From an uncultured Pseudomonadota bacterium (GTDB taxonomy: Bacteria; Oederibacteriota; Muellerivitia; Muellerivitales; Muellerivitaceae): DNA of 64,000 bases. Below the pieces are notes generated by a model. That model had not been told where the DNA came from. It ran no database searches and saw nothing but the letters and a program-made list of their open reading frames with translations. Shown here piece by piece: positions 6,513-23,771 of the stretch. Positions within the stretch are counted from its first letter, which is position 1. Every line of letters starts with the position of its first letter. The DNA is taken from the NCBI GenBank assembly GCA_963770835.1, contig CAVYRH010000004.1, forward strand, positions 1 through 64,000, written 5' to 3'. Position numbers and translations under genes: made by a program.

Positions 6513-6655
6513 ACCCTCATTTCCATTTCTAAAATCAGGCGAAGCCCGATGGGGTGATGAGGGTAATACAGTTTTCAATGCTGGGGCCTTCGGCCCCATT
6601 TCGATGGATAAACTGCATAAAGCCCTTGTCCCCGAGGCTTGCTTTTTTCAATCCG

Positions 6656-6805
6656 AGGCCGGTTTCCTGGCTTAGGGCTTGCAATCCCCGGCCTTCCCAT
6701 CTTTTGGACAGTGGCCTTTGGGGAAAAAACGTCGCCCATCACAGTGGCGGGTCCGCAGCGGTTTTGCACCGATTTCCCGAACACCTTGGATCGATGGGGC
6801 TATTT
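6656..6805 (-). ncRNA. Cobalamin (B12) riboswitch upstream of btuD-btuC-bluB
   Basis: Minus strand reads GGGAAATCGGTGCAAAACCGCTGCGGACCCGCCACTGT...GCCACTG...GGGAAGG...AGCCAGGAAACCGGCC. Confidence 0.92.
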
Positions 6806-13951: not shown

Positions 13952-16609
13952 TTAATGAATGACCGAAATTTTTAAAATTTGCCGGCCGGAAAGGCCTCCG
14001 CTGGCGTTCAACTTCTCCACCACCGCCAGGTAGAGGCCGCTGGCCATACCCGAGGCGTTCCAAAAAGCCTGTCCTGTTTCCGAATCCCCTTGGAAGGAAG
14101 CGGCCAATTCCCCCGTAATCGTAAAGACCTTCACCCTCAAAGTCAGCCCCTGGCCGGAAGGGCCTATGAAGGAAACCCGCTTTTGCCCGATGGAAGTATT
14201 CAAAAGATTAGGTTCTGCGATGACAGTCGCTTCCTCTCTTGCTCCCCCACCCACCACCAGGACGGTTTTAGAAATGTCACTACTTGCGCCTTGTCCTCCG
14301 TCCCAATGCACGGAAAGCAGATAATGTCCGGAAGTCACGTAACCTCCCTGATCGTCAGTGCCGTCCCAGGACAAGGTAACGGCCGAGGCGGAAGATTGGA
14401 TAAGGATTTGGATTTGGTTGGGAGTTCCTGGGGTTCCCGCCGCGCCGGGTTCCAACACTCCCCCACTCAAGGTTACGTTGGTCATGCCGGCGCTGGAGGC
14501 GTCATCTACCCAGGCCGTCAAATGCCTCACCACCTCTCCCGCCTCGTTATAAACCGCCGCCGAAACCTGGGCCAAGTTTCGGCTGACCACCGCCTCCTGG
14601 GTCACGGTAGTCGCGACCCCCTCTGAGTCCACGCTTAAGACCTGGATGTGATAAACACCGTTGGAAACGGGTTCGCCCGAAGAATCGGTGCCGTCCCACA
14701 TCCCCAGCAAGGACCCCTGGCAGTAGAGCAGGATTTGGCTTCCCACGCCCGCCAAGCGGGTGATTTCGCGGCCCTGGAGGGAAAGGCTGTTTACGGCTTG
14801 GGAAAGTTGCAGTATTTGCAGGCTTTTGATGAGCTCCCCGGCTTCGTTATAAACCCCCACTTTGACGGTGTAAGACCCCGTGACCTGGACGGTCGTGCTG
14901 GAAGTAAGGGGATTGGCCAGGCTTGGAAAGGTTAATTCGGCGCCGTTGACCACCGGCGTGCCCGCCGGCGCCAGAAGGTTGACCTTGGTTTGATAGGCCA
15001 GGGAGTAGGCGCCGGGGGCCAGGCTCGCAGGAAGGGTCCAGGTCAATAGGGAATCGGTGGTGTTAAAGGCGGCAGTACCCGCGCCCACTGCTCCCAAACC
15101 AGCGAAGGCCACATTGGCGGGAAGGGTGTCGGTGACCGTCACGCCCGCGAAGTCCCCCGCCGCGACCGTGACGGCCAGGGTATAGGTCAGGGTCGTTCCG
15201 CCCTGGGCCGTGGCCGGAGAAACCTGTTTGGCCAAGACGATTCCCCAGGTCGGCGTGGGGGAAGGGGTGGAAGTCGCCGTCAAGGTTGGGGTCGAGGATG
15301 GCGTGAAGGTGGCCGTTGGCGTGGCGGTGGAAGTCGGCGTGAAGCTGGGGGTGACGGTTGGGGTCGGTGTAAAGGTTTGTGTAGGGGTGGGAGTTGAAGT
15401 GAGGGTGGACGTGGGGGTTCGGGTCGGGGTCAAAGTCGGCGTCGAAGTGGGGGTAGAGGTCGGCGTTAAGGTCGGGGTGGGCGTCACGGGGCAAAGCCCT
15501 CCGGCGATTTCCTGCACTAGGTTGTAGTCGTAATCCACCATATAAAGATTCCCGAAGCGGTCATAGACGAGGGATTCGGGGTGGGAAATATTGGTGGCCA
15601 GAACCCCGGTGCCGCTGGTGGAACAGCCTGAAGTTCCGGTTCCAATGACGGTGCTGACAATACCCGTGGTTCTATCCACCATGCGCACCCGGTTGTTAAT
15701 GTCGTCGGTGAAGATCATATTGCCGTTGCAGGTGAAGGTGACGCTGCCCAGGTCGTCGTTGACTTGCGCCAGTGTGGCGGGCCCGCCGTCTCCGGAGTAA
15801 CCGGGCGTGCCGGTTCCCCCCACAGTGGAGATGACATCGGTGCCTGCGGCCACCTTCCGGTAAACAGCGTTCAAGCAGTCGCCGATGAAAAGGTTGCCTT
15901 GGGCGTCGTAGGCGATAGCCTCAGGTTGGTTCATTTCAGCCAGTGTGGCGGGCCCGCCGTCGCCCGTGTAGCCGGCGGTGCCGTCCCCGGCCAGGGTGGT
16001 GATGAGGCCGGTGGCGATGTTGATTCGCCGCACCGTGGAGTTGCCCGCGTCGCTAAGGATGAGGTTTTGGCCCGTGGGGTCGAGGCGCACGATGTTGGGG
16101 TTGTCCAGCTCGGCCAATGTGGCGGGCCCGCCGTCGCCCGAATAGCCCGCGGTCCAGTTGCCGGCGAAAGTGCTGATAATACCCGTGGTCCCGTCTACCT
16201 TGCGGATAACGGCATCGTAGAAATCCGCGATGTACATATTGTTGCTGGAATCGAAGGCTAGGGCCGAAGGAAAGAAAAGAGTGGCCAGTGTGGCGGGGCC
16301 GCCATCCCCGGCGCCGGGATTGCCGTTGGGGTTATAAATGCCAGCGTAGGTGGTGATGATTCCGGTGTTGATGTTTACCGTCCGCACGGTGTTGCTGCAG
16401 GCGTCGCCGATGTAATAGTTCCCGTGTGAATCGAAGGCGATGTCGTCGGGACAGTCCAGGCCCGCCAGGCTAGCGGGCCCGCCGTCGCCGTAATAGCCGG
16501 GCGCCGAGCAGATGCCCACCAATGTCGTAATAGTCTGTCCCATGGCCGGCAAGGCGGCAAGACCGGTTAATAGGGTCAGAAAAATGAAAATTTTGGAAGA
16601 AAAGCGCAT
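13952..16609 (-). CDS. Secreted or surface protein: NHL-repeat propeller, Thr/Pro linker, DUF11-like Ig domain, FlgD-Ig-like C-terminal modules
   Basis: Signal peptide; repeated [12 protein letters not shown] units; an (xTPT)n linker; KQVSPATA...TLTYTL...[15 protein letters not shown]...WDGTD...GxY twice; terminal [11 protein letters not shown]. Confidence 0.8.
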
Positions 16610-16751: not shown

Positions 16752-19700
16752 ATGGCTTTTAAGACTTCCGTACCCCCCACCCTTTCCCAGCTTCTCCAAA
16801 GTTTAAGGTCCCGCGAGGACCTGAAGGACCGCATCAAGCACGTGGAAAGGATCATGGCGAACCCCGCACGCTTCCACGCCTATCCCAAGACCCTCTCGAA
16901 GGACCTGGCCAAGGTGCTGGAAAAGTCCGGTTATGAGGCCCTCTGGACCCACCAGGCCCACGCCGTGGAGGCCCTGCACCATGGGGCAGCCATGTGGCGG
17001 TGACCACCCCCACCGCTTCCGGTAAGACCCTTTGCTTCAACCTGCCCGTCATGCAGTCGGTAATGGGAAACCCCAAAAGCCGGGCCCTTTATCTTTACCC
17101 CATGAAAGCCCTGGCCCAGGACCAGCTGAAGACCCTGCAGGAATGGATGGGGCGTTTGAAGGCCGCCAAGCTTCCGGTCTTCTCCGCCGAAATCTACGAC
17201 GGCGACACGGCCACGGGGGTGCGCGCCAAGATCAAGAAGAACCCGCCCAACATCCTCTTGACCAACCCGGACATGCTGCATCTGGGGATATTGGCTTACC
17301 ACGACGGCTGGGCGGAATTCTTCAAGAACCTGAAATACGTGGTGGTGGATGAGGCCCATAGCTACCGGGGCATTTTCGGCTCCCACGTGGCCCACGTGCT
17401 GCGGCGGCTTCGGCGCATCTGCCGCTATTACGGTTCCGACCCGCAGTTCATCACCTGCTCGGCCACGCTGGGAAACCCCGACGAATTCCTCACCCAATTG
17501 ACGGGGCTCAATTTCGAGATCATTTCCGAAACCGGCGCCCCGCAAAACGAAAAGACCTTCGTGCTGTGGAACCCGGACACTACTTCGCCCTATACCGAAG
17601 CCGTGACGCTTTTGATCGAATGCCTGAAGGCGGGCATGAAGACCATCGTCTTCACCAAGGCCCGGAAGATCACCGAACTCATCAGCCTCTGGGTCACCCA
17701 GGCCCGGCCCGAATGGGCCAGCCAGATCAAGAGCTACCGGGCCGGGTACCTGCCCGAGGAAAGGCGCGAGATCGAAGCCAAGCTTTTCAAGGACGAGCTC
17801 AAGGCCGTCATTTCCACCTCGGCTCTGGAGGTGGGCATCGACGTGGGGGGCCTGGACGCCTGCATCCTGGTGGGCTACCCGGGCACCATGATCTCCACCT
17901 GGCAGCGCTCGGGCCGGGTGGGCCGGGGCGAGGCGCCTTCGGTGGTCTTCCTCGTGGCCATGGCCGACGCCATGGACCAGTATTGGATGAAGCACCCGGC
18001 GAAGTTTTTCACCATGAAACCCGAGTCCCTCATGGTGGGTTTCGAGAACGAGAACATCGCCAAGGCGCACCTTCGCTGCGCGGCCTCCGAAATCCCCTTG
18101 ACCTCCGCCGACAAGGTCTTTTACGGGAAACTCCTGGAGGAACTCCTGCCTCCCATGGTGAAAGAAGGCGCGGTGCTGGAATCGGCCAGCGGGGAAAAGT
18201 GGCTGGTGACGGACAAAAACCCCCAGCGGGGCATTACCATCCGCGACATGGGCGAGGGCTACCAGATCATCACGCAGGAAACGGGGGAATTGATCGGCAC
18301 CATCGACGGCATGCGGGCCTTCCGGGACTGCCACCCAGGGGCGGTCTACCTGCACCAGGGCGTGCAATACGTGGTCAAGGAATTCCAATGGGAACAGCAC
18401 AAGATTTTGGTTTCGGACGAGCCGGTGGATTACTACACCCAGGTCAATTACGAGGAAGAGACGGAGATACTGGAGGAGATGAAAAGGCGTCCCTTGGGCG
18501 ATGGAAAATCCCAATGCACCATCAAATGGGGAAAGGTGAAAATCACCCAGCGCTTCATCAATTATGAGGTTCACCGCATCGTGGACCGGTCGCTGGTTTC
18601 CACCTATCCCCTCACCCTGCCCCCCTTGACCTTTGAGACCCGGTCCCTTTGGATGATTTTGCCCGACTGGCTCCAGCGCAACCTCTCCGACCGGAAGCTC
18701 CATTTCATGGGGGGCCTGCACGCGGCCGAGCACGGCACCATCGCCATGATGCCCCTGCATGTGGTTTGCGACCGGTGGGACCTGGGCGGTATCTCGACCC
18801 CCGCCCATCCCCAGGTGCCCCAGCCCGTCATCTTCATCTACGATGGCTATCCGGGCGGCGTGGGCTTGTCCGAGCGGGCTTACGAGACCATGGAGGACCT
18901 TTTGACCACCACCTTTGAGATGATCCGCGACTGCGAATGCGAGGAAGGCTGCCCCACTTGTGTGCAAAGCCCGAAATGCGGCAGCGGCAACCATCCCTTG
19001 GACAAGAGGGGAGCCCTCCTAATCCTGGGCCACATCCTCGGCCGGGAGGACTTTAAGGCCGTTACCTTTTCCGCGAAGAAGAAAATTTTTTCAGATGAGG
19101 AACCCCTTTTGCCGATGGGAGAAGAAAAATCCCTGCCTCCTTCCGCCCCGCCTTTGCCGTTAACTCAAATTTCAAAATTCATAATTCAAAATTTGGGTGC
19201 CCCTCCCGATAAGACCGGTCCGGTGGTCTTCGACATTGAGACCCAGTTCCTGGCGGGCGAAATTTCCGGCGGTTGGTCGAACCTGAAAGGGATGAAGCTC
19301 TCCTGCGCGGTGGTTTACGACGTGACCCAGGACAAGTACTACACCTACGTGGAGGAAAACGTGGGGGACTTGATCGCCCACCTGAAGGCTTCCACCCGGG
19401 TCATCGGCTTTAACACCCTGCGCTTCGATTACGGCGTGCTGCAGGGCTACACGTCCTTTAATTTGCAGGACTTGCCCTCACTGGACCTCATGGCTGATTT
19501 ACAGAAGAAACTCAACCACCGACTCTCCCTGGCCCACCTGGCGGAACATACCCTGGGCGGCGCGGAAAAAAGCGCGGACGGATTATTGGCGGTCCAATGG
19601 TGGCGCGAGGGGAAGTACCAGATGGTCATCGATTATTGCCGGCAAGACGTGAAACTGACCAACGACCTCTGGAAATTCGGGCAGGATAAGAAATATGTAC

Positions 19701-19753
19701 TTTTCAAGCACAAACAATCGGGAGAGATCGTGAAATGCCCGGTCAGTTGGTAA
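16752..19753 (+). CDS. DEAD/DEAH helicase with DUF1998 (MrfA/YprA/Hrq1-like) fused to a C-terminal RNase H-like exonuclease; frameshift near 16995
   Basis: TPTASGKT, DEAH, TSALEVGIDVG and QRSGRVGR helicase motifs; CECEEGCPTC...KCG zinc motif; C-terminal VFDIET...GFN...YCRQDV. Confidence 0.9.
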
Positions 19754-21592: not shown

Positions 21593-22153
21593 TTACTTAC
21601 CGTACATCCCGACCAGCTTGGCTTCGGCCAGCTTGTTCTGGCTGCAGTAAAAACCCACCATGGCGGCGGAGGCGTCGGCGGTGAGCCCGAGCGTCTTCAC
21701 CTTGAGGGCGAAAACCTTGAAAATATAGTGGTGCGGTTTCCCGGGGGGCGGGCAGGGGCCGCCGTAGCCGGGCTTGCCGAAATCGGTCCGGGACTGGATA
21801 AGCCCGGCGATGGAGGCGTCGTCCGCCTTGAACCCCTTGGGCAGGCTCGTCACGTCGGCGGGGATGTCAAACACCACCCAATGCCACCAGCCGCTTCCCG
21901 TGGGAGCGTCCGGATCGTAGACGGAAAGGGCGTAGCTCATCGTTCCCTCGGGGCCCTTGGTCCAGTGCAACTCGGGTGAAAGGTTCCCGCCTGAGCATCC
22001 GAAACTGTCGAACACCTGGTCGTTGGACATCGTTGCTCCCGGCTTCACATCCGGGCTCGTCAATTCCATCGCGAAAGAGGCTTGGACGGCCAAAACCACC
22101 AGGGCAACCACTCCTACCAGCTTTCCCGCGACTTTCATCCAATTCCTTCTCAT
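21593..22153 (-). CDS. YbhB/YbcL family Raf kinase inhibitor-like (PEBP) periplasmic protein
   Basis: Signal peptide; CSGGNLSPEL, YDPDAPTGSGWWHWVV and YGGPCPPPGKPHHY motifs. Confidence 0.92.
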   Translation of the reverse strand: MRRNWMKVAGKLVGVVALVVLAVQASFAMELTSPDVKPGATMSNDQVFDSFGCSGGNLSPELHWTKGPEGTMSYALSVYDPDAPTGSGWWHWVVFDIPADVTSLPKGFKADDASIAGLIQSRTDFGKPGYGGPCPPPGKPHHYIFKVFALKVKTLGLTADASAAMVGFYCSQNKLAEAKLVGMYGK

Positions 22154-22398
22154 AGTTACCTCCCAAGTTTTTTAAACTGAACGCACGAATCATAAAACTG
22201 AAAATGAAAAAAAAGCCAGATGTCCCAAAAAATACAGCCCAAAAAAGACGCTGTTTTAAAACTAAAGCCCTATTCAATACCTTTTTAAAATTGCGAAAGT
22301 TTCCAACCCGGTAGATGTTCAAATTTATGGGAAAAGGCCCAATTTTCCCCCACCTGATCTGGATCATAGGGGCCCCCGGGGTACGGGGTGTATAAGAG

Positions 22399-22760
22399 AA
22401 TCGTCGGAAAGGTTCCAAGCCAAGGCACCCCAAGGGTGCAACGGGGACTGAGGTCCCAAAGCGATGAGGAACCCGGCAGTCGAGAGCTGGGGAGTTGGAG
22501 AGGCTTCCGGAAGAAGCACCTTTTAAAGGTGCGGTGGGGCCAAGGCCCGAAAAGGACCGGGATCCAAACCGGCACAACCAGTGGGCACTTGAGGAGGTTG
22601 CAGGTTCGTCAAATCGTCGGAAGGGTTCAAAGGTTGCGCTTCAAAAGCGCGGGGCCGAGGCCCAAAACCACCACCGAACCTTGCTGAAGGTATCTACGGA
22701 TCTTATGAAGGAGTTAAGAATTTGTTTTAGCCCCGGGGCGGGTGCCCCGGGGCTTTTTTT
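22399..22760 (+). ncRNA. Putative structured non-coding RNA with three repeated two-hairpin modules (family not recognised)
   Basis: AATCGTCGGAA(A/G)GGTTC occurs at 22399 and 22612; three GC-stem plus GGGNC-stem modules; -10-like TATAAG at 22391; terminator at the 3' end; no credible ORF. Confidence 0.55.
22729..22760 (+). terminator. Intrinsic terminator
   Basis: AGCCCCGGGGC-GGGT-GCCCCGGGGCT followed by a T-run. Confidence 0.85.
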
Positions 22761-22868: not shown

Positions 22869-23771
22869 ATGAAAATCTTCCTTACCGGCGGCAGCGGCTT
22901 CATTGGATCCTGGGTGGTGAAACAACTGTTGGAGGAAGGCCACCAACTGCGCCTGCTCATCCGCAACCCCTCCAAGATCCCCTCGCTGAAAACCATGAAG
23001 GGAGTCGAGGTGGTGGAAGGCACCCTCTATGACAAGCCGGTCCTGGTGAAGGGGCTCCAGGGCGTGGACGCCTGCGTGCACATCGCCCTGGGCTGGGGCG
23101 AGACCCCCACCACCATGCTGGAGAGGGACACGGCGGTTACGGTGTTCCTACTGGAAGAGGCCGAAAAAGCCGGCGTAAAAAAGTTCCTCTACACCTCCTC
23201 CACCGCCGCCATCGGCAAGTTCCGCCGCATCATGACCGAAGCCATCGACCCCCGACCCGTGGACCTTTACGGCGCCACCAAGGCGGCCTCAGAAGCCTTC
23301 CTGCTGGGTTTCGCGGCCAAGGCCGAAATGCACTGTAATGTCATTAGGCCCGGCTATACCTTTGGCAACCCGGCCTTCGGAAAGGAAGGCGTCACCCAGC
23401 CGGACAAGCGCTTCAATCAAATCGCCTCCGCGGCCAAGAAGGGCGAGCCCATCCACCTCACGAAATACGACGGAACGCAATTCATCTGGGCGGGCGACCT
23501 GGCGAAACTCTACAGCGCGGTGCTCGCCAGCGACCGGCGGCGGAAGATTTATTTCGGCCTCTCCACCGAATTCGTCACCTGGGAAAAGGTGGCGAGGAAG
23601 GCGGTCGAGATGGCGGGTTCCAAGAGCCAGATCGTGCTGGAGGACAAGGGCTGGGACGCCGAACCCAACCTGTTCGACCTGAGTTCGATCAAAAAGGATT
23701 TTGAACTGGAATTCGTGGCGAGCCCTGAAATTGAGAAGCATTTGGCCTATCTCACGGGATTATCCGATTAA
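22869..23771 (+). CDS. NAD-dependent epimerase/dehydratase (extended SDR)
   Basis: TGGSGFIG, YTSSTAA and YGATK motifs. Confidence 0.88.
   Translation: MKIFLTGGSGFIGSWVVKQLLEEGHQLRLLIRNPSKIPSLKTMKGVEVVEGTLYDKPVLVKGLQGVDACVHIALGWGETPTTMLERDTAVTVFLLEEAEKAGVKKFLYTSSTAAIGKFRRIMTEAIDPRPVDLYGATKAASEAFLLGFAAKAEMHCNVIRPGYTFGNPAFGKEGVTQPDKRFNQIASAAKKGEPIHLTKYDGTQFIWAGDLAKLYSAVLASDRRRKIYFGLSTEFVTWEKVARKAVEMAGSKSQIVLEDKGWDAEPNLFDLSSIKKDFELEFVASPEIEKHLAYLTGLSD

Follow-up and report, generated by a model that had tools for sequence, protein, structure and literature searches.

An intergenic tract with the features of a stand-alone RNA gene

We analyzed a 64-kb stretch of DNA (the window, from source genome G000; below, L-numbers denote loci and G-numbers denote genomes). 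In its annotation, a predicted ncRNA with its own promoter-like element and intrinsic terminator occupies the tract that separates a divergent gene of the YbhB/PBP family from an epimerase gene (Table 1). Among the homologous loci described below, a YbhB/PBP-like gene also lies beside L100 and L097 only, and it is not a fixed component of the RNA system; the epimerase gene is not next downstream at any other homolog examined, and it is not a component either. The motifs on which the original prediction of a novel ncRNA was based are all present where it placed them, as is the strong plus-strand terminator at the end of the tract. A terminator was found in all 14 homologs with a long enough locus (the L136 sequence is cut inside its terminator). 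The 5′ boundary needs a small revision: TATAAG does stand at 22391, but the start given as 22399 is more likely near 22403, because homologs keep a TA-rich hexamer 6–7 nt ahead of a conserved GU(A/C)G start (14 homologs compared) and an RNA contig identical to homolog L042 stops 2 nt inside the predicted start there. We saw no −35 consensus at the window promoter, as would be expected of an activator-dependent promoter.

Table 1. Features of the RNA gene and its neighbors, in window coordinates
Feature	Position	Strand	Details
Divergent upstream gene, YbhB/PBP family	21593..22153	−	PF01161
Crp/Fnr-type operator, predicted	22353..22368	+	TGA-N6-TCA core 22355–22366; center 42.5 nt before predicted start
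−10-like element TATAAG	22391..22396	+	TA-rich hexamer 6–7 nt 5′ of start
Predicted ncRNA	22403..22760	+	About 358 nt; homologs 260–410 nt
Module 1	22411..22473	+	P1 22411–16/22468–73, P2 22419–20/22461–62, P3 22425–39, P4 22444–57
Hairpin P5	22474..22489	+	Short; conserved 8-nt loop ending in GNRA-like run
Module 2, degenerate in the window	22502..22565	+	P1 22502–08/22559–65, P3 22516–32, P4 22537–48
Hairpin P6	22569..22585	+	Followed by invariant GUG
G+U-rich spacer, variable	22586..22602	+	Shine-Dalgarno-like run 22591–22598, no start codon at usable distance
Module 3 on long irregular basal stem	22603..22702	+	P0 22603–09/22696–702, 22617–20/22684–87
Module 3, inner helices	22603..22702	+	P1 22622–28/22676–82, P2 22632–35/22666–69, P3 22636–50, P4 22652–63
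Intrinsic terminator	22729..22760	+	Stem 22729–22754, 11 pairs, U tract
Downstream NAD-dependent epimerase/dehydratase	22869..23771	+	PF01370; 108 nt past terminator

In all 15 homologs, the plus strand gives the more stable fold of the two strands, and G-U cells exceed A-C cells in the helices (46 vs. 31). The folding z-score of the window tract was −2.73 with the terminator and −2.09 without it; without the terminator, z was above −2 in six of the 15 homologs (20 shuffles each). Open frames of 96–236 codons overlap the tract, but none is conserved: the frames preceded by a Shine-Dalgarno sequence differ among homologs, and seven of the 15 have none. The earlier judgment that the tract holds no credible ORF is upheld to that extent.

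We considered that the conserved feature might act as DNA, as an operator array, a mobile repeat or a small-protein gene. The patchy distribution and variable context of the homologs would fit such an explanation, as would the palindrome of hairpin P4, which resembles the actinobacterial DosR box. However, this palindrome is not enriched in G000 (six found, 5.7 expected), the G-U excess and the lack of a conserved frame speak for RNA, and the cover by RNA contigs is discrete (see below). The gene is also single copy in G000 (BLAST, nhmmer and both covariance models return one locus), which counts against the dispersed DNA repeat of which the original prediction had warned. Searches of viral contigs (0 and 3 matches, none real), phages (none) and plasmids gave no true match; the single plasmid match is 27 nt long and terminator-like. 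We consider an explanation at the DNA level largely refuted.

No Rfam 15 family reached its gathering threshold on the tract or on seven homolog loci, in agreement with the failure of the first reading to place the RNA in a known family. A permissive search gave only sub-threshold matches, mostly on the terminator. The matches above threshold in the whole window are two cobalamin riboswitches (782–944 and 6640–6803, both on the minus strand), both far from the ncRNA. Identity with tmRNA, RNase P RNA, SRP RNA or 6S RNA was rejected, all four being found at other places in G000. The literature searched, which extends neither to supplements nor to most subscription papers, holds no description of the ncRNA; a motif named only in a survey supplement (e.g., PMC5737381) would escape such a search. 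We conclude that the tract very probably is a stand-alone gene for a real structured ncRNA, of a family that is apparently undescribed and without a conserved protein-coding frame.

Homologs and their genomic context

Searching related genomes with covariance models, as had been suggested at the outset, was productive. In all, we found 15 distinct RNAs, in 10 of the 31 genomes of the window's family and on five metagenome contigs, and, with stricter filters, none in the phylum's other genomes (68 searched). BLAST against 61 relatives yielded eight true homologs, all within the family. A hairpin pattern yielded seven true matches among 20 in GTDB contigs, all of them sequences already found, and six among 93 in metagenomes, five of which were new (L068 is a repeat); the other 13 and 87 matches are chance hits of a short hairpin. 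The module covariance model added a divergent homolog in G015, and a second model, R2, built from module 3 only, returned the same 10 genomes. An extra match in G011 (L189) was dropped because it lies inside a coding stretch, and a match in G006 (L255, E 0.38) stands outside the homolog count. A module-3 pattern with one mismatch allowed was found in 28 of 99 genomes, but the extra loci inspected are unrelated stretches that fail R2.

No other homolog shares more than 72% identity with the window RNA. Among near-complete genomes of the family, the RNA is present in eight of 17 and was not found in nine, two of them of the window's genus; it was found in none of the three other genomes of that genus. 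Most of the near-complete genomes that lack the RNA keep the regulator and operator boxes described below, and thus the RNA is dispensable. In the RNA tree, the one strongly supported branch joins two genomes that belong to the same genus, and a second genus likewise has its two genomes paired, which fits descent with loss, if weakly.

Two loci carry reduced forms. L097 (657–921) is a natural two-module form with modules 1 and 2, the spacer, a terminator and an intact upstream box. In G015, module 3 also occurs by itself in degenerate form, followed by a separate terminator (L244:1460-1620; G015:C24:491046-491145, minus strand; 80% over 59 nt), 3.3 kb from the full RNA gene.

Neighboring genes vary and none is common to all loci. 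This variation bears on the proposal, made in the original prediction, that tandem aptamers control the terminator upstream of the epimerase gene. Tandem aptamers are a known layout, and tandem riboswitches such as that for glycine place duplicated junction domains before a terminator, much as the repeated junction domains are placed here; the epimerase gene, moreover, is on the same strand, 108 nt past the terminator. However, unlike the glycine riboswitch, the RNA has neither a fixed co-oriented downstream gene nor an Rfam match. No two of the 10 genomes have the same downstream gene, this gene is convergent in six of them (L002, L006, L007, L008, L010 and L169), the next gene in G004 and G020 has its own upstream box, and no RNA contig extends past the terminator in seven RNA runs mapped on L042. 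We therefore regard a tandem riboswitch or attenuator of the epimerase gene as largely refuted. In G004, G020 and G021, the RNA gene stands among boxed genes. A type III antitoxin array, which would have its toxin gene directly after the terminator, was rejected as well, as no downstream gene is shared.

Three homologous modules maintained by compensatory changes

Each homolog consists of three homologous modules, save the one with two. A module has a P1 stem of 6–7 bp, an A-rich internal loop, a P2 stem of 2–4 bp and a three-way junction with an AA linker and two hairpins, P3, which varies, and P4, which is conserved and of the UGAG type. In the window, the relation is apparent from a direct repeat of 21 nt (22399–22419 and 22612–22632, 90% identical). 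Module 1 has the UGAG loop itself. The hairpins of modules 2 and 3 had been drawn with 2-nt loops, but these are really 4-bp stems with the tetraloops CAAG (22541–22544) and CGAG (22656–22659), which correspond to the UGAG of module 1. The extent first given to module 2 (22516–22548) was too small, since it left out a closing stem in which six of seven pairs form; module 3 is present as described, but 22612–22680 falls short of the long basal stem that begins at 22603. Of the three modules in the window, module 2 has degenerated most (37 bits by model R1, compared to 62 and 78). The top score is that of module 1, which was used in building R1; R2 also recovers module 1 (E 0.012) and detects module 1 or 2 in five genomes. 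Thus, the triplication is not an artifact of model building.

We measured pairing across homologs in two alignments. In the model-fitted alignment, 83% of 802 cells were paired and 15 of 20 pairs had a two-sided change, including all seven pairs of P1, compared to 26–58% paired in slid controls; in an unfitted MAFFT alignment of 41 modules, 78% of cells were paired and 14 of 20 pairs had a two-sided change. P2 is weak (about 60% paired), chiefly in module 2. For module 3 with its basal stem, 92% of 440 cells were paired and 11 of 32 pairs had a two-sided change, a level reached by none of 500 shuffles, in a test that ignores kinship and is inflated by related sequences. P3 loops vary, and the P4 loops of the 41 modules are most often UGAG (19) or AAAG (5), with others besides; in module 1 of G015, P4 is changed on both arms with UGAG retained. 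The pairing thus appears to be kept by compensatory changes, and these comparisons support selection on RNA structure, as the original prediction had proposed from the window by itself.

The two small hairpins between modules are less secure. P5 is weakly supported as a modeled hairpin (34 of 42 cells paired, with zero two-sided changes). For P6, the local register (52 of 55 cells paired) is a candidate, as is a rival pairing that would enclose module 2 (46 of 56). Several longer-range pairings were tried and rejected: the pairings drawn by eye, which joined the 5′ leader to strands after module 2 or 3 and the P5 loop to the linker of module 1, failed across homologs. Among the pairings listed by an all-column scan that was crude, over-permissive and low in power, none stood out as a pseudoknot or kissing pair.

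Thermodynamic ensembles back P3 and P4 in 10–13 of 14 homologs, but in full-length folds the P1 stem of module 1 reached p ≥ 0.5 in only six of the 14, that of module 2 in four and that of module 3 in nine. In the window, the comparative fold lies 14.5 kcal/mol above the minimum, and module 2, which alone folds as modeled, pairs wrongly with module 3 when the whole RNA is folded as an ensemble. We ascribe both the low support for P1 and the energy gap to cross-pairing of similar strands.

This cross-pairing raises the possibility that near-identical P1 strands swap between modules or molecules, such that the RNA forms a protein-free oligomer like ROOL or GOLLD, which form RNA-only cages (PMC12286853); alternatively, the modules, as three-way junctions of aptamer size with conserved junction bases, might bind a small molecule or metal (heme, a nucleotide signal or a cation). 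The lack of a partner gene would also fit. On the other hand, the compensation of P1 changes inside each module, in all seven pairs, fixes the local fold, there is no expression platform for a ligand, and the scan for pseudoknots and kissing pairs, crude and low in power as it was, listed no tertiary contact of that kind. We consider a ligand-binding or self-assembling RNA unlikely.

We also considered whether the RNA binds RNA polymerase, as 6S and Ms1 RNAs do, and is a second such regulator used under low oxygen. The size and apparent abundance of the RNA would suit such a role, as might the placement of module 3 on a long irregular stem. However, a canonical 6S RNA is encoded elsewhere in G000, the predicted structure lacks a large central bubble and consists of repeated modules, unlike 6S RNA, and there is no Rfam match. 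We find a polymerase binder very unlikely.

Transcription of homolog L042

We found RNA cover for one homolog, L042, whose predicted RNA runs from 758 to 360. Eighteen RNA runs hold part of L042, of which we mapped seven, from seven studies; the other 11, with small shares, were left uncounted, and all runs were chosen for containing the RNA. In all seven, cover of the gene was restricted to L042 380–756, so that the transcription check proposed with the original prediction was positive for a homolog. A 347-nt contig of run X9 lies wholly on 394–740 and a 359-nt contig of run X5 on 387–743. Each of these contigs spans all modules, and therefore full-length molecules exist. RNA contigs of five runs end at 380–395, in the 5′ arm of the terminator. 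Run X19, of unrecorded type, spans the whole locus. The remaining cover consists of short, divergent pieces from a pirin gene, with loose ends, and the uncovered flanks are a weak hint of a discrete unit. Taken together, the contigs, which carry no information on strand, ends or level, support transcription of L042 as a discrete unit, detected in RNA from soil, peat and wetland.

A predicted Crp/Fnr-type operator upstream of the RNA gene

Upstream of the −10-like element lies a box of the Crp/Fnr type, which the original prediction had passed over together with its regulon. The TGA-N6-TCA core is exact (6/6) at −42.5/−41.5 in nine of 14 homologs and matches 5/6 in one more, relative to a chance background of 3.1e-4 per position. 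The box is missing in four of 14 homologs, which cluster in the RNA tree, and is ambiguous in L169; thus, regulation is not uniform. In G000, the extended form TATGA-N6-TCATA occurs 23 times, compared to 0–2 times for any other gap length in the range 0–11, and the strict form of the box is found in 27 of the 31 family genomes, compared to one for a reversed control. Many boxes in G000 stand 21–23 nt ahead of a −10-like (TAnnnT-like) hexamer, the same spacing as in the window. A box at about −41.5 with a weak −35 element is the geometry of a class II activator site. From position, spacing and enrichment, we predict that the box is a Crp/Fnr class II site and infer binding.

The box marks genes of hydrogenase, Fe-S repair and fermentation beside Crp/Fnr regulators. 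The boxed genes of G000 encode RIC/ScdA-like and hemerythrin proteins, a 2Fe-2S hydrogenase-type subunit, HypC, a 2-oxoacid:ferredoxin oxidoreductase, an acyl-CoA ligase/GNAT fusion, a nitronate monooxygenase, a radical SAM protein and an M50-CBS protease. Two Crp/Fnr genes lie within a box-rich stretch of contig C4. Their sequences include a motif rich in cysteine and a recognition helix, V-E-T-x-I-R, that looks FNR-like, and neither protein reaches the cut-off of any named NCBIfam family. Judging by gene content and the geometry of the promoter, this is likely a low-oxygen or nitric-oxide regulon, and a Crp/Fnr regulator likely switches on the RNA gene.

The sRNAs activated by Fnr, FnrS among them, are short, depend on Hfq and act by pairing within the anaerobic regulon. 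Like FnrS, the window RNA would belong to an anaerobic regulon, its gene being preceded by a box of the Crp/Fnr type in class II placement; unlike FnrS, it is three times longer and modular, and Hfq (PF17209) was not found in any of the five genomes searched, of the 31.

The stretch of contig C4 merits a separate observation. This island (G000:C4:625000-694000; L190–L193) is rich in TATGA-N6-TCATA and contains the two Crp/Fnr regulators (C4:630631 and C4:692508), whose sensing domain has a motif of three cysteines and which are closely related to proteins of 27 of the 31 family genomes; they possibly are an undescribed type of oxygen or NO sensor. In the window, a small inverted repeat (22330–22349) lies directly 5′ of the box, between the divergent promoters, and may be a second operator.

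The spacer and the candidate roles of the RNA

Among homologs, conservation resides in helices and junctions, repeated in each module, and in no one single-stranded seed, a pattern that fits one partner bound repeatedly. As three copies of one surface without such a seed are most simply explained by a single partner, our preferred interpretation, to which we assign a probability of roughly 45%, is that this is a trans-acting, multivalent RNA, switched by a Crp/Fnr regulator, that binds one protein per module. On this model, which we draw from sequence comparisons, a Crp/Fnr-family activator would bind the box and switch the RNA on along with the genes for low-oxygen or nitric-oxide stress. Each of the three modules would hold one copy of the same protein, presumably at P4 with its UGAG loop, the AA junction and the GA-rich internal loop, and the RNA would titrate or store this protein as the cell shifts to fermentative or resting metabolism.

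RNAs of this general kind include the CsrB/RsmZ sponges, which have their own promoter and terminator, repeated units and many GGA words. The window RNA is like them in having its own promoter and terminator within about 360 nt, repeated units and many GGA words; unlike in CsrB/RsmZ, the GGA words lie outside hairpin loops. In addition, CsrA (PF02599) was found in none of the 31 family genomes, against matches in 3 of 14 for the control, and so a sponge of the CsrB type is not upheld; our preferred interpretation is instead close to the multivalent sponge, for some other protein, among the ideas of the original prediction. With neither CsrA nor Hfq found in the genomes searched for each, both the classic sponge route and the classic pairing route are unlikely.

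The spacer between P6 and module 3 is the part of the RNA that no reading so far accounts for in length or in G+U bias. It varies from 17 to 84 nt among homologs, with 70% G+U over 752 nt, and no conserved seed sequence was found in it across homologs. We considered that this spacer might pair with C/A-rich mRNA leaders, such that the RNA is a base-pairing regulator that acts whole or cut to module-sized pieces. The G+U content would allow this, Fnr-controlled pairing sRNAs such as FnrS exist, and modules are found apart from one another, in L097 (modules 1 and 2 only) and L244 (module 3 only). There is also a precedent for the layout, three similar modules on one regulon-controlled transcript: NrsZ of Pseudomonas aeruginosa is a 226-nt transcript under NtrBC/RpoN that is cut into modules of about 42 nt, single hairpins with a conserved loop acting on rhlA (PMC4253122). 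NrsZ is nearest to the window RNA in layout, as a stand-alone sRNA with three similar modules under a global regulator, but the modules of the window RNA are three-way junctions of 65–100 nt and not single hairpins with a conserved loop, its control is likely by Crp/Fnr, and we found no sequence relation between the two RNAs. The variable spacer length without a seed, the failure to find Hfq in five of five genomes and the single contigs that bridge all three modules, such that a precursor at least persists, also count against pairing, and we judge it improbable.

The spacer has a second property, a Shine-Dalgarno-like run. GGAG lies within 22 nt of module 3, just 5′ of it, in 11 of 14 homologs, compared to 2.3 expected from shuffles. 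The window spacer pairs with the 3′ end of 16S rRNA at −11.9 kcal/mol, and spacers pair with the anti-Shine-Dalgarno sequence at −10.6 kcal/mol or better in seven of 14 homologs. With the stress-regulon context, these results suggest that the RNA might park small ribosomal subunits, through modules and a Shine-Dalgarno run that lacks a start codon, during arrest at low oxygen. However, GGAG is missing in three of 14 homologs and is no better than shuffles in four more, the homologs are related and so the count overstates the case, the two-module form L097 has no module 3, and apart from the anti-Shine-Dalgarno pairing, no conserved word shared with or complementary to the rRNA operon was found. 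Thus, the parking of small subunits is rather doubtful. Nor do we give much more credence to the broader form of this idea, a stress RNA whose junction domains and Shine-Dalgarno run park ribosomal subunits or another core machine, although if true, such an RNA would be a counterpart of protein hibernation factors. We continue to favor a protein bound once per module.

Relation to other large RNAs and additional observations

Few classes of large structured RNA are found in bacteria, and on closer study several have turned out to be ribozymes, scaffolds or cages. Nearest in kind to the window RNA are the raiA motif/ModT, ROOL, GOLLD and OLE, which likewise are large, abundant, covarying RNAs of unsettled function that act in trans from their own genes (PMC10861870, PMC12286853). 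They are described as single intricate folds, some phage-borne or with fixed neighbors, whereas the window RNA is an internal triplication, chromosomal, restricted to one family and without an Rfam match.

The layout is unusual, a triplicated three-way-junction unit of 65–100 nt, copies of which also occur as two or one. The range is narrow, one family of uncultured bacteria and patchy within it, but the small size of a single module would allow probing, pull-down and structural work without a cultured host, and the predicted Crp/Fnr promoter, common to genes of hydrogenase, Fe-S repair and fermentation, gives a handle on the biology.

We note three other features of the window and its genome. 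A predicted secreted protein of 885 aa (13952–16609, minus strand) has beta-propeller-like repeats, as read by eye, a long Pro/Thr linker and a C-terminal tail. A 919-aa helicase of the DEAD/DEAH type (16994–19753, plus strand) has an apparent exonuclease-like C-terminal fusion, also read by eye. Finally, the same set of Tyr/Gly/Thr/Trp tRNAs occurs on two contigs (G000:C19:2103-7653 and G000:C24:91-5525), which suggests a duplicated or contaminating stretch.
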